64,000 nucleotides of DNA from Candidatus Velesiimonas alkalicola (GTDB lineage Bacteria; Omnitrophota; Gorgyraeia; Velesiimonadales; Velesiimonadaceae), in NCBI GenBank assembly GCA_013626165.1, contig NDHX01000007.1, positions 6,560 to 70,559 on the forward strand, read 5' to 3'. This document shows positions 7,675 through 60,479 of this stretch, piece by piece. Under the pieces are notes generated by a model that saw only the letters and a program-made list of their open reading frames with translations, had not been told where the DNA came from and did no database searches. Position 1 is the stretch's first letter. Each line of letters starts with the position of its first letter. Position numbers and translations under genes: made by a program.

Positions 7675-7782
7675 AACTACCTCCTGTTTGCCAGTGCACC
7701 AGTGCACCAGACTATAATTTATTATAATATTAAACCTGGAAAATTCAATTGAAAAAAAAAACAGATATGATAGAGTATTTAC

Positions 7783-20875: not shown

Positions 20876-20904
20876 TTTTTCCCCCGGTTGCAGTGACAGG
20901 CAAC

Positions 20905-20975
20905 TGGTGCTCTGGTGCTCTGGTGCCTGGTGCTCTGGTGCTCTGGTGCCCTGGTGCCCTGTCGCCAGTCACCTT
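20905..20975. repeat. GGTGACTGG-headed 8-mer (GGTGCTCT/CACCAGAG) tandem array upstream of accB
   Basis: Direct reading of ctggtgctctggtgctctggtgcctggtgctctggtgctctggtgccctggtgccctgtcgccagtcacc. Confidence 0.9.
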
Positions 20976-22208: not shown

Positions 22209-22225
22209 ACCTACCCCCTTGTTTC

Positions 22226-22285
22226 AGGCAACTGGCAACAGAGCACCAGGCACCAGAGCACCAGAGCACCAGTTGCCTATCACCA
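22226..22285. repeat. 8-mer CACCAGAG tandem array upstream of pilC
   Basis: caggcaactggcaacagagcaccaggcaccagagcaccagagcaccagttgcc. Confidence 0.9.
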
Positions 22286-22294
22286 ATTATTTAA

Positions 22295-24013
22295 TCATCC
22301 TGCTAGTTGTGTTTCTCTTATAATCTCTTCTACTGTTGTTGTCCCATCAAATATTTTCATAAGGCCATCCTCTCTGAGGGTGCGCATACCAAACGCTTGC
22401 GCAGCCTTTCGCAATTCAGATGTTGAAACCCTTTGTAGAATAAGTTCACGGATTGTATCATTTACAATAAAAAGTTCGCATATTGCAGTTCTTCCAAGAT
22501 AGCCGGTATTATTGCATCTTTCACATCCTGTGCCATAGTATAGTTTTTTCCCCTCTATATTTTTTCTTGTAAGTCCAAGTTCTTTTAATACATAATCATC
22601 AGCCGTATATTCTGTCCTGCAATGTTGACATATTTTACGCACTAATCTCTGAGCAAATATTGCTTCAATAGAAGATGTAATAAGGAAAGGCTCCACTTCC
22701 ATATCCATAAGACGGGTTATTGTACCCGGCGCATCGTTCGTATGAAGTGTTGAAAATACAAGATGTCCTGTAAGTGAGGCCTGTATAGCAATCTGTGCAG
22801 TTTCGGTATCACGAATTTCTCCTACCATTATAATATCAGGGTCCTGCCTTAAAAATGACCTTAAACAGGAAGCAAATGTAAGTTTTATTTTTGGTTTTAT
22901 CTGAACCTGTATAATACCGGGCATATCGTACTCAACAGGGTCCTCCGTTGTCAATATCTTTACCTCAACAGAGTTGACCTCTCTTAAACACGAATAAAGT
23001 GTTGTAGTTTTTCCACAGCCTGTTGGGCCTGTAGCAATTACAATCCCGTTTGGCTTGGCTATTATCTGTCTTAGTTTTAAGAGAACATCTGCCGGGAACC
23101 CAATCTGATTAAGATCAAGACTTACAACTGTCTTATCAAGGACTCTTAAAACCACACTTTCACCAAATACTGTCGGAAGCGTAGAAACACGAAAGTCTAT
23201 ATTTTTTTGCCCTATTCGCAGGGGCATATGACCATCCTGAGGAAGTCTTCTTTCTGCAATGTCCATATCTGCCATAACCTTTATACGGCATGTTACGGGG
23301 ATTGCAAGACGCTTGGGAGGGGGAACCATATCATAAAGAACACCATCTATACGATACCTTATCCTGAATTCGTCCTCAAAGGGCTCAAAATGTATGTCAC
23401 TTGCATGGTCTTTAACAGATTGTGATAATATCAGAGCTACAAGTTTAACAACCGGTGCCTGTGCAGCCATTTCCCGAAGGCTTGCGATATCCAGTTCTTC
23501 TTCTGCGGCGGCGGTTACTTCAGGAATTTCCTGTTCCATTGTAGCAATAAGATCGCTCATTGATTCTACCTCTGTCCCATAATATTTTTGTAAAGCTCTT
23601 ATGATAGAATCTTCCTTAGCAACCACACTTTTAACCTTACAATCCAACATAAATTGAAGGTCATCCATAATATTTATGTTCAATGGATCTGCTATTGCAA
23701 TGGCGAGGGTATTGTTTTCAAATCTTACCGGAATAATGTTATATATCTTTGCAACAGATGCCGAAATCTTATCTATAACATTTCTCTGAATTTCTAAATT
23801 ATCAAGGTCTACTGTTTCAATGCCCGCTTGAAACCCAAGGGCCTGAAGCACATCTTCTTCAGAAACAAATCCCAACTCAATAAGAACTCTTCCAAGAAAC
23901 TTTCCGGATGTTCTTTGTTCTTCAAGCGCCTGTTCCAGCTGTTTCTCTGTTACAAGTCCCGCCTCTTTTAGCATTCTCCCCAGCGGTCTATATATTCTTC
24001 TTTCTTCAACCAT
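22295..24013 (-). CDS. pilB: type IV pilus assembly ATPase PilB (GspE family)
   Basis: N-terminal T2SSE_N domain, Walker A GPTGCGKTT, Asp box, His box, tetracysteine CQHC...CERC. Confidence 0.9.
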   Translation of the reverse strand: MVEERRIYRPLGRMLKEAGLVTEKQLEQALEEQRTSGKFLGRVLIELGFVSEEDVLQALGFQAGIETVDLDNLEIQRNVIDKISASVAKIYNIIPVRFENNTLAIAIADPLNINIMDDLQFMLDCKVKSVVAKEDSIIRALQKYYGTEVESMSDLIATMEQEIPEVTAAAEEELDIASLREMAAQAPVVKLVALILSQSVKDHASDIHFEPFEDEFRIRYRIDGVLYDMVPPPKRLAIPVTCRIKVMADMDIAERRLPQDGHMPLRIGQKNIDFRVSTLPTVFGESVVLRVLDKTVVSLDLNQIGFPADVLLKLRQIIAKPNGIVIATGPTGCGKTTTLYSCLREVNSVEVKILTTEDPVEYDMPGIIQVQIKPKIKLTFASCLRSFLRQDPDIIMVGEIRDTETAQIAIQASLTGHLVFSTLHTNDAPGTITRLMDMEVEPFLITSSIEAIFAQRLVRKICQHCRTEYTADDYVLKELGLTRKNIEGKKLYYGTGCERCNNTGYLGRTAICELFIVNDTIRELILQRVSTSELRKAAQAFGMRTLREDGLMKIFDGTTTVEEIIRETQLAG

Positions 24014-24120
24014 ATATCACCTAGCACCTATCACCAGGACACCTGTATTTCGTATCCCGTCTTTACAAACGACAGCTTTTACCTGTTATCTGTTGCCAGT
24101 TACCAGTCACCTTAACTTTA

Positions 24121-24191
<71 letters not shown>

Positions 24192-24200
<9 letters not shown>

Positions 24201-25281: not shown

Positions 25282-25362
25282 AGAGCACCAGAGCACCAGA
25301 GCACCAGAGCACCAGAGCACCAGTCGCCAGTCACCTGTCTTTACTACCTACTACCTACTACC
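25282..25362. repeat. 8-mer CACCAGAG array plus adjacent 7-mer CTACCTA array upstream of pilT
   Basis: tagagcaccagagcaccagagcaccagagcaccagtcgccagtcacc ... tactacctactacctactacctactat. Confidence 0.9.
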
Positions 25363-25370
25363 TACTATTT

Positions 25371-27068
25371 TTACGCTATATCCTGCTGTGTTATACGCAA
25401 AACTTCTGGCAGGGTTGTTATCCCTACAAGCACCTTTCTAAAACCATCTTCCCTGAGTGTTTTCATTCCTGCTTCTCTTGCCTTCATTTTTATAACATTG
25501 CTCGGAGATCTTTCAAATATCAGTTCTCTTATCTTATCATTCATTATCAGAAGTTCATATATACCTTTTCTTCCCCTGAAACCTGTTTGTGAACACTCAT
25601 TACATCCCCTGTCCTTATAAATTATCCTGCCTTCTAAATCAGACCTTTTCCAGCCTGCGGCTGCAAGTTCCTGGTCTGTTGGTTCATAAGGTTCTTTACA
25701 TTTTTCACATATGGTCCGGATAAGCCTTTGTGCAAGGACCGCCTGAACAGCAGAAGCAACAAGATACGGTTTTATACCCATATCAATTAAACGGGTTATG
25801 GCACTTGGCGCATCGTTTGTATGAAGTGTTGAAAATACAAGATGCCCCGTAAGTGCAGCCTGTATCCCAACACCAGCGGTCTCATAATCACGCATCTCTC
25901 CTACCATAATGACATCAGGCGCCTGACGCAACATAGCACGAAGTCCACTTGCAAATGTAAGCCCTATCTGTGGTTTTACATGAACCTGATTAATGCCTGT
26001 TATCTGGTATTCAACAGGGTCTTCTACTGTTATAAGTTTTCTGTTGGGCTTATTTATACTTGAAAGTGCGGCATAAAGAGTGGTTGTTTTCCCACTTCCC
26101 GTAGGACCTGTTACAAGAAGTATACCATTGGGTGATTCTATAATTTTTACAAACTTTTCAAGGTCTTCTTCCATAAAACCAAGTTCAGGAAGACTTTTCA
26201 TCATTCCGGTTTTGTCAAGTATTCTCATAACAATACTTTCGCCATGGATACCGGGTATATCAGACACACGAAGATCAAGCTGCCTTCCGGCAAATACAAT
26301 CATAATACGTCCGTCCTGTGGAAGCCTTCTTTCTGCAATATCCATACCTGCCATAAGCTTAATCCTTTGCAAAACAGAAGCCTGAAGCCTTCTGGGAGGT
26401 GCCGGAATCTCCTGTAACACACCATCTATCCTGAAACGGATACGCAACCTGTTTGAAAGAGGTTCTATATGAATATCAGAAGCTCTTGTCCTGAATGCTT
26501 CATGTATAAGAAGTGAAACAAGTTTAATAACAGGAGCTTCTTCTTCTTCAACAGAAACTGTTTTTTCCTCTTCTTTTATTAATGCGAGTTCCTGTTCGGT
26601 TAACCCCTGTATCATTGTATCAACTGTCTCTGATACCATTGGATAGTATACCCCAAGACATGTTTTCATATCATCTTCTGTTGACCGAACAACCTCTACA
26701 TTACATTTTAAAAGCATCCTCAGTTCATCTATCATTACAAGATTATCAGGATCAAATGTAGCAACTGTAAGAGTATTATTTTCAAACTGGACCGGTATAA
26801 TGCGATAGCGATGGGCAACCTGAGGTGTAATTATGCTTATAACATCAGCAGGTATTTTTAAATCAAGAAGAGAAATTGTCTGTGCCCCAAAATGTGCCGA
26901 TATTACTTTCAGAACTTCTTTTCTTGAAAGAAAACCCAGTTCAACAAGCACTTCTTCTATGGGACTGTCTTTTTCAGAATGTCCAAGCAACACCTTTTCT
27001 GATTGCTTTTTTGTTAATAACCCTAACTTGCGCAAAACATCACATAGTTCTTGCGCAGGCACAGTCAT
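25371..27068 (-). CDS. second GspE/PilB-family secretion ATPase paralog
   Basis: Start set at MTVPAQ (GGAGGGG Shine-Dalgarno); T2SSE_N domain, Walker A GPTGSGKTT, tetracysteine CEKC...CNEC. Confidence 0.85.
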   Translation of the reverse strand: MTVPAQELCDVLRKLGLLTKKQSEKVLLGHSEKDSPIEEVLVELGFLSRKEVLKVISAHFGAQTISLLDLKIPADVISIITPQVAHRYRIIPVQFENNTLTVATFDPDNLVMIDELRMLLKCNVEVVRSTEDDMKTCLGVYYPMVSETVDTMIQGLTEQELALIKEEEKTVSVEEEEAPVIKLVSLLIHEAFRTRASDIHIEPLSNRLRIRFRIDGVLQEIPAPPRRLQASVLQRIKLMAGMDIAERRLPQDGRIMIVFAGRQLDLRVSDIPGIHGESIVMRILDKTGMMKSLPELGFMEEDLEKFVKIIESPNGILLVTGPTGSGKTTTLYAALSSINKPNRKLITVEDPVEYQITGINQVHVKPQIGLTFASGLRAMLRQAPDVIMVGEMRDYETAGVGIQAALTGHLVFSTLHTNDAPSAITRLIDMGIKPYLVASAVQAVLAQRLIRTICEKCKEPYEPTDQELAAAGWKRSDLEGRIIYKDRGCNECSQTGFRGRKGIYELLIMNDKIRELIFERSPSNVIKMKAREAGMKTLREDGFRKVLVGITTLPEVLRITQQDIA

Positions 27069-27092
27069 TTTCCCCTCCATTAAAAGGCTATA

Positions 27093-27162
27093 TGGGGTCA
27101 ACTCTATTTTCTTTTTTTAATAATACTACATTGGTTTTTTAGAGAAAATAGAGTTGACCCCA
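27093..27162. repeat. 70-bp perfect-palindrome element (copy 1 of 2)
   Basis: tggggtcaactctattttc ... 32-nt loop ... gaaaatagagttgacccca; near-identical copy at 53249-53318. Confidence 0.85.
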
Positions 27163-31404: not shown

Positions 31405-31470
31405 CCACCTCCCACCTCCTACCTACTACCTCCTATCTACTATCTACTATCTACTACCTCCTACCTACTT
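31405..31470. repeat. 7-mer CTACTAT/CCTCCTA mixed tandem array
   Basis: cccacctcccacctcctacctactacctcctatctactatctactatctactacctcctacctact. Confidence 0.9.
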
Positions 31471-32474
31471 TCTCTTCCTATCAATATTCTTATCTGGTCA
31501 GAGGGGCTTGTTCTCTTTATTATATATTTATCCTCTGTTTTTGCTAAAACCCGTTTTATTGTACTCTGCCATAAAAAATTTTTTACAATTTTTGGATTTT
31601 CCTTATATTGTGAAAACAGGCTCTTAAAATAAGATGCATCGGCTCTTGCTTCCTCAATTGTTCTGTTGCTGTATATCCTTGCATCTTCAAGAACAGATGT
31701 GGCGACCCCTCTTGCCTGTTCCAATGTTTTGCTATAATATCCGAGTGCCTCATTGATTTTTCGTCCCCTTTCCTGTCCTGCCCTGATAACCTCTTCAAAA
31801 TCTCTCTTCACAAAGAAAGGAGGAGATATGTCTTCAAGGTCAATTCTTTCTATGATTATTCCGGAATTGATTTTTTCCAATTGGCCCTGAACATTTTTCC
31901 TTATAAGTTCTACAGCCTTGTGTCTTTCAAACATAGCAATATCTACAGCCAGACTCGCATATACTTTTACGGCTTCAGACTCAATAATACGGGATAACAC
32001 ATATTCAGGATTTGCAATTTCTAAATATGCGATAGGGTCTGATATCTTATATCTTGCAGTAAGATTTATATTAATAATATTTGTATCTGCTGTTAGAACA
32101 TATCCATCAATATCCGGTTTAAGTGTAGAACGAGCCTGTTCTCTACCTGTTCTGTCCCAGAAGCAGTTTATCTGAAGTGTATGGACACGTCCTGTTGGAA
32201 CTTTAACAACCTCATCTACCAGATATGGAAAAGCCCAGTGAAGGCCTGGGGATAATACCCTTTCTGCTGGTAGCCCTCTAATCTTCCCGAACCTTAAAAC
32301 TATCGCAGACTCATACTGTTCTACTGTAAATATTGAGGATAAGAAGAAAATCAAAAGAGCCAATCCCATAAGAATCTGAAGCAGCTTGAAACTTACACTC
32401 AGTGCTTCCGATAGTGCGCCCATAGGTGTCTGTTGACCATTTTTAAGTTGTTCTTCTTTCTTTTCCATATCCAC
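31461..32474 (-). CDS. SPFH/band-7 domain protein, HflK-like
   Basis: N-terminal transmembrane segment then VLRFGKIRG...LSPGLHWAFPYLV prohibitin-homology domain. Confidence 0.75.
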   Translation of the reverse strand: MDMEKKEEQLKNGQQTPMGALSEALSVSFKLLQILMGLALLIFFLSSIFTVEQYESAIVLRFGKIRGLPAERVLSPGLHWAFPYLVDEVVKVPTGRVHTLQINCFWDRTGREQARSTLKPDIDGYVLTADTNIININLTARYKISDPIAYLEIANPEYVLSRIIESEAVKVYASLAVDIAMFERHKAVELIRKNVQGQLEKINSGIIIERIDLEDISPPFFVKRDFEEVIRAGQERGRKINEALGYYSKTLEQARGVATSVLEDARIYSNRTIEEARADASYFKSLFSQYKENPKIVKNFLWQSTIKRVLAKTEDKYIIKRTSPSDQIRILIGRESR

Positions 32475-41063: not shown

Positions 41064-41117
41064 TCACCGTAACACCAGAGCACCAGAGCACCAGAGCACC
41101 AGAGCACCAGAGCACCA
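41064..41117. repeat. 8-mer CACCAGAG perfect tandem array (6.5 units) upstream of bamA
   Basis: caccagagcaccagagcaccagagcaccagagcaccagagcaccagagcaccag; flanked by 11-bp inverted repeat ccgtattctgt / acagaatacgg. Confidence 0.9.
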
Positions 41118-41219
41118 GAGCACCAGTTGCCCGTTACCTATGTTCTGATACCTTGAACCCTGTCTGCCGCAGGCTGGAACAGAATACGGGAGATAGACAA
41201 CTGACAACAGGCAACGGCT

Positions 41220-43023: not shown

Positions 43024-43032
43024 AATTTAACT

Positions 43033-43218
43033 GAAATTCCAACATAAGGATGAAATACGAACTCATTCCCCTTTTTCTTAAAAGGGGTGGCAACGAAGTT
43101 GACGGGGTATTCAATGCTACCTTATAACCCAATACCCCACCTGCTAACGCAGGCACCCCTTTACGAAAGGGGAATTAAATACTTGTTTAATCCTTATAAT
43201 TCTTATGTCGGAATTTCA
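43033..43218. mobile_element. MITE-like structured element with ~17-bp terminal inverted repeats (copy A), filling the rpsR-rplI spacer
   Basis: Terminal inverted repeats gaaattccaacataagga / tcttatgtcggaatttc; internal GGGG/CCCC hairpins; second copy at 46859-47040. Confidence 0.45.
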
Positions 43219-43480: not shown

Positions 43481-43530
43481 AGAGCACCAGAGCACCAGAG
43501 CACCAGGCACCGGAGCACCGGAACACCTGT
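43481..43530. repeat. 8-mer CACCAGAG array upstream of rpsR
   Basis: agagcaccagagcaccagagcaccaggcaccggagcaccggaacacc. Confidence 0.9.
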
Positions 43531-45716: not shown

Positions 45717-46658
45717 CTAGTTAAATAAAATACTTACCGATTCTTCTTTATGAATTCTTCTTATAGCTTCTCCTAGAAGTGGTGCTATAGATAGAACAAG
45801 TATTTTGTCTATTTGTTTATCTGCGGCAAGTGGTATTGTATCTGTCACAACAAGTTTTTCAATACTGGAGCCTCGTATCCTTTCAATGGCAGGTCCTGCT
45901 AACACAGGATGTGTTACAGCCGCATATACCGTTTTGGACCCTGCTTTTTTAAGTGCATCTGCGGCCTCAACAAGTGTCCCGGCGGTAGAAACAAGGTCAT
46001 CTACTATAACAACATCTCTATCCTTTACCTCTCCTAATATGTTCATCACTTCTATTTCCCTATCATTTACCCTTTGTTTGTCAACAACAGCAAGGGATGC
46101 CTTTAAACGTTTTGCATATGCCCGTGCCATTTTAATTCCCCCAACATCAGGTGATACAACAACAGGATTTTTAAGCCTCTGCTTTTCAAAATATTCTACA
46201 AACTCGTTTACTGCAAAAAGATGGTCAACAGGAATATCAAAAAAGCCTTGTATCTGCCCTGCATGTAAATCAACAGTGAGCACCCTGTTTGCACCGGCAA
46301 TCGTAATAAGATTTGCAACAAGTTTTGCCGTAATAGGAACCCTGGGTCTGTCTTTCCTGTCCTGCCTTGTATACCCGAAATATGGCATAATAGCAGTTAT
46401 TCTTCTTGCCGATGCCCTTTTAAGTGTATCAAAAAAAATTAATAATTCTACAAGATTTTCATTCACAGGTGTACAGGTTGACTGAACTATAAATACATCT
46501 CTTCCCCTTACATCTTCATCTACTTTTATATGTGTTTCACCGTCCGGAAAATTAGTAATACATACATTGCCCTGTTGAATATCTAAATATTTACATATTT
46601 TTTCTGTCAATTTATGATTTGATGAACCAGAAAAAATTGCCAATTCTACCTTATCCAT
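45717..46658 (-). CDS. prs: ribose-phosphate pyrophosphokinase
   Basis: Start at MDKVELAIFSGSSN (GGGGGGAGAG Shine-Dalgarno); PRPP-binding motif VVIVDDLVSTAGT; classic prs-rplY-pth order. Confidence 0.9.
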   Translation of the reverse strand: MDKVELAIFSGSSNHKLTEKICKYLDIQQGNVCITNFPDGETHIKVDEDVRGRDVFIVQSTCTPVNENLVELLIFFDTLKRASARRITAIMPYFGYTRQDRKDRPRVPITAKLVANLITIAGANRVLTVDLHAGQIQGFFDIPVDHLFAVNEFVEYFEKQRLKNPVVVSPDVGGIKMARAYAKRLKASLAVVDKQRVNDREIEVMNILGEVKDRDVVIVDDLVSTAGTLVEAADALKKAGSKTVYAAVTHPVLAGPAIERIRGSSIEKLVVTDTIPLAADKQIDKILVLSIAPLLGEAIRRIHKEESVSILFN

Positions 46659-46689
46659 AATCTTACTCTCCCCCCCTTTTAGAACAACA

Positions 46690-46742
46690 GACACCAGAGA
46701 AGTGACTAGTTTACTGGTGCTCTGATGCACTGGTGTTCTGGG
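46690..46742. repeat. degenerate 8-mer CACCAGAG array immediately upstream of prs
   Basis: acaccagagaagtgactagtttactggtgctctgatgcactggtgttctggg. Confidence 0.8.
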
Positions 46743-46858
46743 AGATTATGCCGCTTCTTTTTCCATTACAATTTTTGGTTTTTCACCTCAGGTGCAATCA
46801 GGATGGATGACGCACTGTTTTACACCTTGCATTGAAGGTATTTCATAACTGAAATTCC

Positions 46859-47040
46859 GACATGGGGATGAAATACGAACTCATTCCCCTTTTCTCAAAA
46901 AGGGGTGGCAGACCGAAGGTCTGACGGGGTATTCAATGCTACCTTATAACCCAATACCCCGCCTGGCTAACGCAGGCACCCCTTTACGAAAGGGGAATTA
47001 AATACTTGTTTAATCCTTATAATCCTTATGTCGGAATTTC
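46859..47040. mobile_element. MITE-like structured element with terminal inverted repeats (copy B), flanked by 11-bp direct repeat ggtatttcata
   Basis: Terminal inverted repeats gaaattccgacatgggga / ccttatgtcggaatttc; flanking ggtatttcata at 46848-46858 and 47041-47051 (candidate target-site duplication). Confidence 0.45.
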
Positions 47041-47045
47041 GGTAT

Positions 47046-47416
47046 TTCATACATAACATTTAACATTATTTCTTCTTATGACGGTTTGCTCTCAGCCTCT
47101 TCTTTCTTTTATGTTTTGCCATTTTTGCTTTTTTGCGTTTTCTCCCGCAAGGCATACAAACATCCCCCTTTCTGTTATTCTATTGTTAAGAACCTGTAAG
47201 TTCTAATTCCCCTCACACCAGTGCACCAGACCGGTGACTGATGCACCAGACTGGTGACTGGTGCTCCGGTGCTCTGGTGCTCTGTTCATACATAACATTT
47301 AACATTATTTCTTCTTATGACGGTTTGCTCTCAGCCTCTTCTTTCTTTTATGTTTTGCCATTTTTGCTTTTTTGCGTTTTCTCCCGCAAGGCATACAAAC
47401 ATCCCCCCCCTTCTGT
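47046..47416. repeat. ~130-bp perfect direct duplication (47046-47177 and 47285-47416), each followed by an 8-mer array; minus-strand micro-ORF in each copy
   Basis: Identical ttcatacataacatttaac...ggcatacaaacatccccc units; minus-strand ORFs 47066-47155 and 47305-47394 encode MPCGRKRKKAKMAKHKRKKRLRANRHKKK with GGGGGA Shine-Dalgarno. Confidence 0.8.
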
Positions 47417-47466
47417 TTAGAGCACTAGGCACCAGAGCACCAGACTGGTGACTGGTGCTCTGCTAA

Positions 47467-48351
47467 CTATGGTATCACTTTATTTAGCGCATATTCTACT
47501 ATCCCCTCTGCTCCTGTTTTGAGAAGTTTCGGTATTAAATCTCTTACAATCTTCTCATCAATAATTGTATCTACATCATACCATCCTTTTGTGGAAAGAG
47601 GTGCAACTGTGGGTTTTTTCATGGCCGGTAATATTGAAAGAACTTTTTTTAAGTTTTTTGAATGGACATTCATCTTTAAACCAACCTTTTCCTCTGCAAA
47701 AATAGCGCCCCTTAACAAAAGTGCTATTGTTTGCATCTTATTTCTTTTCCATAAATCGGACCAGGAACTGTGTGAAGATATAAACTGCGTTTTTGATATG
47801 CATACATTATCAATAATCTTTAACCTATTTGTGCGAAGTGAAGAGCCTGTTTCTGTTAATTCTACAATTGCATCTACAAGTCCCAGCGCCGGCTTTACTT
47901 CTGTTGCTCCCCAACTAAATTCAACATCTGCATGGACATTATGATTTTTAAGATATTTTTTTGTAACCTGCACAAGCTCTGTGGCAATTCTTTTCCCTTC
48001 CAAATCTTTTACGGATTCTATATTAGAATCTTTCAGAACGGCAAGCACCCATCTAACAGGACCAGATGTAGCCTTTGAATATGTAAGTTCACATACCTGT
48101 ACCACATCACAATCATTCTCATTCACCCAGTCCTGTCCTGTTATTCCACAATCCAGAACGCCTGCTGCAACATATCGTGGCATTTCCTGTGCTCTTATAA
48201 GCAGTGCCTCTATCTGTTCATCATCCACAACAGGATAATATGACCTTTCGCTTACATAGATATTAAACCCAGCCTTCTTAAACATCTTTATAGTTGATTC
48301 CTGAAGGCTTCCTTTTGGGAGTCCCAATTTTAGTTTTTTATTGGGTTTCAT
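47467..48351 (-). CDS. hisG: ATP phosphoribosyltransferase (long form)
   Basis: [15 protein letters not shown]-terminus, HisG catalytic domain + C-terminal regulatory domain, 294 aa. Confidence 0.85.
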
Positions 48352-53213: not shown

Positions 53214-53248
53214 TAGACCCTATTCAAGTTCATATTGACCTTTGTAAA

Positions 53249-53318
53249 TGGGGTCAACTCTATTTTCTTCTTTTAATAATACTACATTGGTTTTTTAGAG
53301 AAAATAGAGTTGACCCCA
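53249..53318. repeat. 70-bp perfect-palindrome element (copy 2 of 2)
   Basis: tggggtcaactctattttc ... gaaaatagagttgacccca; 1-nt loop difference from copy at 27093-27162. Confidence 0.85.
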
Positions 53319-53508
53319 TAGTATTTTATCCTATCAATTATATTACAGCAAGCATTTTTTTGCAGGGCCTTGTGCGAGGGGGTTAAAAATAGGCACAGTA
53401 CAAATGGCTCTGGGAGATTTTTTTATTTACAAAAAATTTAAAAATTTGATACAATACATATCTGGTGCTCTGGTGCATTGGTGCTCTAAGAAAAAATAGG
53501 AGGAAGGT

Positions 53509-54402: not shown

Positions 54403-54502
54403 GTGACTGGTGCTCTGATGCCTGGTGCTCTGGTGCTCTGGTGGCTGGTGCTCTGGTGCTCTGGTGGCTGGTGCTCTGGTGCTCTGGTGGCTGGTGCTCT
54501 GT
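54403..54502. repeat. GGTGACTGG-headed 8-mer array with 24-mer higher-order periodicity, ending at the Shine-Dalgarno of the next gene
   Basis: caggtgactggtgctctgatgc then (ctggtgctctggtgctctggtggc) x3. Confidence 0.9.
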
Positions 54503-59430: not shown

Positions 59431-59575
59431 TAGAGCACCAGTGCACCAGAGCACCAGCGCACCAGAGCACCAGAGCACCAGTGCACCAGAGCACCAGCGC
59501 ACCAGTCACCAGTGCACCATGGCACCAGTCACCAGTGCACCATGGCACCAGTCACCAGAGCACCAGAGTAGAGAG
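59431..59575. repeat. 145-bp 8-mer CACCAGNG array with 32-mer and 23-mer higher-order repeats upstream of nagB
   Basis: gagcaccagtgcaccagagcaccagcgcacca x2, then gtcaccagtgcaccatggcacca x2. Confidence 0.9.
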
Positions 59576-60345: not shown

Positions 60346-60479
60346 AAAATAATCAATATGTTTTTCTTTGGTGATATAATGGAGAAAGGATCAGTATTAA
60401 AAAAGCCAGAATATCTGGAACAAGCTTACACTCTCGGAATGAATTTAAAGGATTTATAGAAAAAGGGGGTAGATTAGAT

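Follow-up and report, generated by a model that had tools for sequence, protein, structure and literature searches.

Two identical genes for a predicted ribosomal protein bS22, set among octamer arrays, between hisG and prs of Candidatus Velesiimonas alkalicola

The hisG-prs interval and its repeats

The locus analysed here lies within a contiguous 64,000-nt stretch of DNA from Candidatus Velesiimonas alkalicola, referred to throughout as the window, and consists of minus-strand genes whose order, in the gene sense, is rpsA, hisG, bS22 copy 2, bS22 copy 1, a 195-nt element, prs, rplY (L25) and pth. The two bS22 copies are the micro-ORFs to which an earlier note on this DNA had drawn attention; both are present where that note placed them, between hisG and prs and co-directional with these genes, and they encode an identical 29-aa peptide, MPCGRKRKKAKMAKHKRKKRLRANRHKKK. 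The features of the locus, in the gene sense, are:

47467-48351, minus strand: hisG (ATP phosphoribosyltransferase, long form), an ORF with Pfam HisG and HisG_C domains, directly upstream of the bS22 copies
47421-47462 (47419-47462 in the octamer listing): octamer array C, opposed GCACCAG and CTGGTGC units starting 5 nt after the hisG stop
47437-47460, minus strand: 24-nt direct repeat GAGCACCAGTCACCAGTCTGGTGC, proximal occurrence, in array C
47403-47410, minus strand: SD-like G8 run of bS22 copy 2 (GGGGGGGGA-N7-ATG)
47305-47394, minus strand: bS22 copy 2 ORF, 29 aa and stop (ORF list, PDB matches)
47285-47407: repeat copy 2, 123 nt, reaching from within the SD through the ORF to a 20-nt 3' tail (repeat scan)
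47216-47284: octamer array B, between the bS22 copies
47243-47266, minus strand: twin of the 24-nt direct repeat, in array B
47169-47215, minus strand: unique spacer of 47 nt, upstream of copy 1 only (alignment)
47164-47168, minus strand: SD-like G5 run of bS22 copy 1
47066-47155, minus strand: bS22 copy 1 ORF, 29 aa and stop (ORF list, PDB matches)
47046-47168: repeat copy 1, 123 nt (repeat scan)
46846-47040: MITE-like repeat of 195 nt, with 22-nt terminal inverted repeats at 46848-46869 and 47022-47043
46679-46743 (46692-46740 in the octamer listing): octamer array A, an opposed octamer-like hairpin just upstream of the prs SD
45717-46658, minus strand: prs (ribose-phosphate pyrophosphokinase; Pfam Pribosyltran_N and Pribosyl_synth), first gene of prs-rplY(L25)-pth

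A repeat scan of the whole window recovered an exact direct repeat of 123 nt (47046-47168 and 47285-47407, 100% identity) with a start-to-start spacing of 239 nt. It is the sole long perfect non-array repeat within the 64 kb, and its exactness over 123 nt excludes a chance origin. The locus had previously been described as a perfect tandem duplication of about 130 bp; the perfect identity holds over the shorter length of 123 nt, the remaining 8 or so bases (TTCTGTT) being alike in both copies in a shifted register, and the copies form a same-orientation pair rather than a strict head-to-tail array, separated by a 116-nt spacer (47169-47284) that comprises 47 unique nt and an octamer array. On the plus strand, the exact match breaks off at a C-run, which contains five residues in copy 1 and eight in copy 2 (G5 and G8 in the gene sense) and beyond which the shifted bases follow.

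In the gene sense these runs lie 8 nt ahead of the bS22 ATG. The GGGGGA-N7-ATG arrangement noted previously was thus found ahead of both ORFs, with the longer run in copy 2, and comparable G-runs precede other long ORFs, including prs. Tracts of G5 to G8 act as the apparent SD of several genes in the window, at 46670-46676 (prs, G7), 47164-47168 and 47403-47410, with further instances at 20881-20885, 22214-22218 and 60465-60469; the unlike run length of the two bS22 copies marks such tracts as prone to slippage. The hisG stop and the start of bS22 copy 2 are 72 nt apart, with one hairpin between them. A consensus scan detected neither a sigma-70-like promoter nor an intrinsic terminator on the minus strand near either bS22 copy, and the window contains no tRNA or tmRNA gene in a dedicated scan and no rRNA gene in a scan with Rfam at gathering thresholds.

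Each repeat copy has, as reported earlier, an octamer array beside it, on its high-coordinate side and hence upstream in the gene sense (47216-47284 and 47419-47462). The adjacency is real, but the arrays do not belong to the biology of the duplicated unit. They form a genome-wide, intergenic repeat built of the tandem octamer GCACCAGA or its complement. The window contains 61 occurrences of GCACCAG, 3.7 being expected, and these group into 13 or more clusters with at least two units each. All clusters but one, which overlaps the end of a called ORF, lie between called ORFs; the distance from a stop codon to the start of an array is often about 10 nt or less, and the arrays take either orientation relative to the genes. 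Beyond the hisG-prs interval they are found at:

7696-7710
20904-20957
22243-22272
25285-25323
41080-41126
43484-43521
53462-53476
54407-54497
59435-59566
61436-61466

Fold prediction on the minus-strand RNA yields an 11-bp perfect hairpin for array C (centroid -25.3 kcal/mol) and a strong hairpin for array B (-40.9 kcal/mol, z -3.5). Many arrays carry degenerate units (TCACCAGT, TTGCCCGT) as caps, the number of units after hisG varies among assemblies of one population (1 vs 4), and the arrays break short-read assemblies. None were present in 80 loci of relatives, and their sequence has no counterpart in the literature searched or in Rfam.

The 195-nt MITE-like element is bounded on both sides by the direct repeat GGTATTTCATA (46837-46847 and 47041-47051), possibly a duplicated target site; the bS22 repeat has its distal boundary (47046) inside this 11-mer, 5 nt from the element. 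The predicted fold of the element is very stable (z -4.97). A second, largely identical copy occupies 43028-43217, between rpsR (S18) and rplI (L9), and both copies sit just 3' of small ribosomal protein genes (bS22, S18) in minus-strand operons. A Logan contig (L087) begins exactly at GGTATTTCATA, which hints that the element is polymorphic, with filled and empty alleles. Searches with Rfam (the window at gathering thresholds and 46600-47500 at E <= 10) returned only spurious matches to miRNA and viral hairpins, and the repeat unit, the octamer arrays and the MITE-like element correspond to no RNA family described there; the 195-nt element may represent a MITE, or else a structured RNA that is transcribed.

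Other repeats are dispersed through the window. A near-perfect palindrome of 74 nt (TGGGGTCAACTCTATTTTCT...AGAAAATAGAGTTGACCCCA) occurs at 27089-27162 and 53245-53318, the two instances being 97% identical and 26 kb apart, and arrays of the heptamers CTACTAT and CTTCTAT in a 14-nt register (24109-24196 and 31409-31496) constitute a second intergenic microsatellite-like family. Two adjoining minus-strand ORFs, 22295-24013 (572 aa) and 25371-27101 (576 aa), share stretches of 72-93% identical DNA at a constant offset of 3079 nt (22620-22846 with 25699-25925, 23226-23284 with 26305-26363, and 22997-23038 with 26076-26117); the sequence suggests a tandem gene duplication of greater age that has since diverged, and each of the two genes has octamer arrays beside it.

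Identity and conservation of the encoded peptide

The peptide had been likened in the earlier note to ribosomal micro-proteins, a comparison that can now be replaced by a name, bS22, on the basis of full-length alignment to chains of three cryo-EM ribosomes. Searching all PDB chains with phmmer returned three matches and no others, all of them bS22 in cryo-EM ribosomes:

7JIL chain 5: Flavobacterium johnsoniae, E 8.7e-7
9I5V chain 10: Porphyromonas gingivalis (assigned via PMC12123416), E 5.6e-6
8FMW chain V: Borrelia burgdorferi, E 7.7e-6

The alignments cover residues 1-28/29 with 71-76% identity. A six-sequence bS22 profile recovers the same three chains from the PDB at E 1.7e-14 to 5e-13, values that add little independent support because three of the six profile rows are these very chains and the matches are in part self-matches. 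All 14 columns that are invariant in the six-sequence alignment (M1, P2, G4, K6, R7, K8, K11, H15, K16, K18, K19, R25, H26 and K28) are present in the peptide. With 29 aa and 66% Lys, Arg and His (19/29), it also falls within the size and composition of bS22 (about 28-33 aa, >60% K/R/H); the extreme basicity remarked upon previously is borne out, at a figure somewhat lower than the 70% or so then given. By sequence comparison, the peptide is ribosomal protein bS22 and not a new kind of peptide, and its location in the ribosome is predicted.

Curated models do not contribute to this assignment. No NCBIfam family matches the peptide at E <= 10, and its score against Pfam COX24_C (PF08213), the mS38/AURKAIP1 domain whose name some bS22 bear, is 10.2 bits (E 0.75, residues 6-29), below the gathering threshold of 23 bits. 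Structurally verified bS22 of the Bacteroidota/Borrelia subtype score no better against COX24_C, their best match (E 0.26) being likewise sub-threshold, so these models are not diagnostic for this subtype. The peptide resembles the Bacteroidota/Borrelia bS22 in its length (28-30 aa), in the motif MP-x-G-[KR]-KRK...HK[RK]KK...RHKK, in its extreme basicity and in being typically missed by annotation or labelled 'hypothetical'. The subtype is represented by Fjoh_1533 of F. johnsoniae (7JIL), bS22 of P. gingivalis (9I5V/9I5X) and bb0822 of B. burgdorferi (8FMW). The present case departs from these in having two identical gene copies and in belonging to an uncultured lineage, with its nearest HisG and Prs in Omnitrophota and Planctomycetia MAGs; association of the protein with the ribosome is predicted here.

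In solved ribosomes, bS22 is a basic helix that inserts at the subunit interface, between h44 and h45 of 16S rRNA, and makes contact with H68/H70 of 23S rRNA; its gene is a candidate essential gene in Borrelia, and the protein of M. smegmatis modulates the aminoglycoside site in h44 (PMC7797042, PMC10618245, PMC12123416, PMC10081302). In both Borrelia and Flavobacterium the gene was unannotated or annotated as 'hypothetical' (PMC10618245, PMC7797042). Mycobacterial bS22, mitochondrial mS38 (AURKAIP1/COX24, PF08213) and eukaryotic eL41 fill the same h44/h45 pocket with a similar basic helix, and whether these proteins and bS22 are related by homology or by convergence is debated (PMC10618245, PMC12123416). 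The similarity of our peptide to this group is sub-threshold, as in the weak COX24_C match (E 0.75), and the six-sequence profile reached none of the three in the PDB at E <= 1.

For the comparison with relatives, one genome per species was scanned with Prs, and the six-frame translations of all 80 loci collected were searched with a bS22 HMM. The closest Prs match is 65% identical, and the best matches come from Omnitrophota and Planctomycetia MAGs. ORFs for bS22 were detected in 2 of the 80 loci, with one copy per locus:

L010, Omnitrophota MAG: bS22 MPCGKKRKRVKIRTHKRKKLRKALRHLKKRATR, 100 nt past the hisG stop, AAGGAG upstream; hisG 60% identical
L009, Planctomycetia MAG: bS22 MPCGKKRKKRKIRTHKKKKLRKSLRHKKKRLS, 21 nt past the hisG stop, AAGAGG upstream; hisG 56% identical

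The bS22 DNA of both loci is strongly diverged from that of the window, with many synonymous or conservative changes, and the peptide aligns without gaps. The possibility raised earlier, that relatives might retain only the nucleotide repeat and not the ORF, is not what these loci present: the ORF is kept 3' of hisG in both, and the copy number, which the earlier note had also suggested comparing, is one in each. Judged from these alignments, the conserved entity is the protein rather than the nucleotide repeat, and the hisG-bS22 order is ancestral.

When the 39-aa stop-to-stop segment was run exhaustively with phmmer against a library of 1.84 billion proteins, 84 cluster representatives were returned at E <= 1e-3. 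In most of them the bS22 motif forms the C-terminal end of an over-extended ORF call, which indicates that the gene is too short for gene callers. One homologue in the representative library (P0006) is called as a 48-aa protein in which a partial internal repeat, MPSGRKRLRQKMATHKGVY, precedes the full MPSGRKRLRQKMATHKRKKRLRKNRHKKK; to judge from this protein, small duplications at bS22 loci may recur elsewhere.

Copy number in the population and origin of the second gene

An exact look-up of the HisG product places the organism in metagenomes from The Cedars, a serpentinizing (hyperalkaline) spring, and in several SRA runs; its contigs were found in the Cedars runs DRR093101-DRR093104, SRR8194967 and SRR21423783. 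Two Cedars assemblies, GCA_002581705.1 (GPS1 2011) and GCA_002581825.1 (BS5 2012), provide contigs across the locus, here termed L001 and L002, respectively. L001 has a single bS22 gene and equals the window after removal of the 194 nt between the two 24-mers GAGCACCAGTCACCAGTCTGGTGC, over 657 of 657 nt. L002 is also of the one-copy form and joins hisG to array B at another point than L001; taking the 178 nt between two array-borne 11-mers out of the window gives its sequence, save for one extra octamer. Both contigs carry the 47-nt spacer that is missing upstream of copy 2. These contigs differ in what they say about the genome. The L001 form is predicted both by recombination or slippage between arrays and by a shortcut in a de Bruijn graph of word size <= 24, and it fits a two-copy as well as a one-copy genome. 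The 11-nt overlap of L002 is too short for a k-mer shortcut, which makes its junction genuinely of the one-copy type.

Two Logan short-read contigs end at the exact base where the L001/window and L002 forms part, which suggests that these haplotypes coexist in the sample. Upstream of prs (window 46790-46805; positions ~50-65 of L087 and L088), contigs from SRR21423783 and SRR8194967 read GATTGCATCCGGGGTG where the window and L001 read GATTGCACCTGAGGTG, a difference that points to distinct strains in different Cedars samples. The two-copy form is seen in one assembly only, that of the window; the others are one-copy or broken in the region. An exact 29-mer search of metagenome contigs returned the BBPF contig only, and three antisense ORFs that span copy-2-specific junctions have no matches on record. 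Copy 2 is flanked, in place of the 47-nt spacer, by G8 and CTAGTGCTCTAAACAGAA, which the alignment recovers in no one-copy contig. We regard it as likely that the genome does have two copies and that members of the population differ in copy number.

The explanation that we favour for the locus as a whole, with a probability of roughly 0.8, is that it holds two identical bS22 genes, with array-borne repeats as the sites at which recombination or slippage adds or removes a copy. A segment containing the SD, the ORF and the 20-nt tail would have been doubled in the same orientation, 239 nt apart, to give two genes for one protein, and copy 2 would lie between short direct repeats of 24 nt and of 11 nt provided by the arrays. 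Through recombination between these repeats, or slippage during replication, one copy would then be gained or lost, and copy number would vary within the spring population. Copy-number change between short direct repeats is known in bacteria, as in REP/BIME-type or microsatellite-mediated tandem duplication and deletion. The present locus is comparable in that the L001 difference falls exactly at 24-nt repeats from a dispersed family and the L002 difference at an 11-nt pair plus one octamer; it is unlike REP/BIME-type repeats in that its tandem GCACCAGA octamers are without match in Rfam or the literature searched. The octamer arrays probably supply the recombination substrates here. Copy 2 is probably read through from hisG and copy 1 probably transcribed from its own upstream region, where the 47-nt spacer may hold a promoter. 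We infer that both copies are expressed and that the protein enters the ribosome with a net effect on dosage only; since both genes encode the identical protein, only dosage or regulation can differ between them.

The duplication is probably an ordinary, population-variable and recent one. The earlier note had called it very recent on the grounds of sequence identity, and the lack of any substitution over 123 nt does make this likely, although it falls short of proof because the copy flanks are extensively different and gene conversion is possible. Zero substitutions together with polymorphism in the population favour a recent event. Set against this, a single deletion step leads from the two-copy form to each of the one-copy forms, so that the two-copy allele may be older than the one-copy alleles sampled; deriving it from either one-copy form requires a duplication and, in addition, remodelling of the region upstream of copy 2. 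As an alternative to an older two-copy allele, the coding part may have been homogenised by gene conversion. Under both histories, the direct repeats at which a copy is added or lost come from the arrays. The direction of the event, gain or loss, is a matter that we infer rather than observe.

Other readings of the locus have to be weighed against recombination or slippage between array-borne repeats. An old duplication whose coding parts were kept identical by gene conversion or selection, leaving differently regulated paralogous loci, is unlikely, and the regulatory arrangement that goes with it, copy 2 co-transcribed with hisG and copy 1 feeding the prs-L25-pth operon from its own promoter, is doubtful to the same degree. 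Such a history would account for upstream regions that differ widely (the 47-nt spacer at copy 1 only, the array structure, G5 vs G8) and by more than is expected beside zero substitutions in 123 nt, as well as for one-copy forms that lie a single deletion step from the two-copy form when the reverse takes extra steps. However, arrays and homopolymer runs slip far faster than point substitutions accumulate, so that divergent flanks need little time; the relatives L009 and L010 are single-copy at this position; and the consensus scan revealed no promoter or terminator signals for separate regulation. More improbable still is an assembly artefact, in which there would be one bS22 gene and the second copy would stem from an assembler or scaffolder joining two strain variants of the locus. 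The short-read contigs are broken throughout the region, strain heterogeneity is evident in the arrays, and two other assemblies of the population have hisG followed by the copy-1-type upstream region. Yet the sequence that joins the tail of copy 2 to array B (GTATGAA followed by CAGAGCACCAG) has no overlap with one-copy sequence and needs real spanning reads, and the copy-2 flanks, G8 and CTAGTGCTCTAAACAGAA, are not a variant of L001 or L002 sequence; it is these two features that make a false concatenation of strain variants unlikely. Moreover, L001 is exactly the k <= 24 shortcut expected from a two-copy genome, and the assembly of the window surpasses every indexed short-read assembly of the organism in contiguity, the indexed contigs with MetRS from the far end of the window reaching at most 14 kb.

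That the repeat is non-coding, a mobile or regulatory element or a structured RNA with a fortuitous 29-codon ORF, is a reading to which we give almost no credence and which can be considered effectively refuted already. The region is indeed crowded with dispersed non-coding repeats, and gene callers leave the ORF uncalled on L001, but with only 29 codons it would be passed over just as bS22 has been in Borrelia and Flavobacterium (PMC10618245, PMC7797042). The peptide has full-length identity of 71-76% to experimentally modelled bS22, other phyla keep the ORF, in diverged DNA, at the corresponding genomic position, and there is no Rfam match. A different departure from repeat-driven gain and loss of an ordinary duplicate would give the arrays a role of their own, as recombination or hairpin modules that vary bS22 copy number and dosage in this hyperalkaliphile in an adaptive, switchable manner, with G5 vs G8 possibly shifting translation. 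We consider this highly improbable. The protein in question braces h44, the helix of the decoding centre, together with an intersubunit bridge (PMC7797042, PMC10618245, PMC12123416, PMC10081302), and the locus, if it did behave in this way, would represent an adaptive, switchable polymorphism of ribosome composition instead of a neutral duplication.

Annotation, range and possible consequences

Genomes that encode a very small ribosomal protein more than once are also known, with the zinc-dependent and zinc-independent paralogue pairs of S14, S18, L28, L31, L33 and L36 as examples (PMC6094098). Those pairs are diverged, separately regulated (Zur) and functionally distinct, whereas the products of the bS22 pair described here are identical.

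The main practical value of the finding lies in annotation, since a gene of about 29 codons such as that of bS22 is routinely missed. The known range of bS22 is modestly extended, to an uncultured serpentinite-spring bacterium, one Omnitrophota MAG and one Planctomycetia MAG; to our knowledge, structures of the protein come only from Actinobacteria, Bacteroidota and Borrelia. The bS22 duplication itself is less unusual than the octamer arrays and the MITE-like element; it provides a small example of repeat-mediated copy-number variation and shows how short-read assemblies can collapse loci of this kind. For the biology of the organism, the duplication would pose a new question only if the dosage of bS22 matters.
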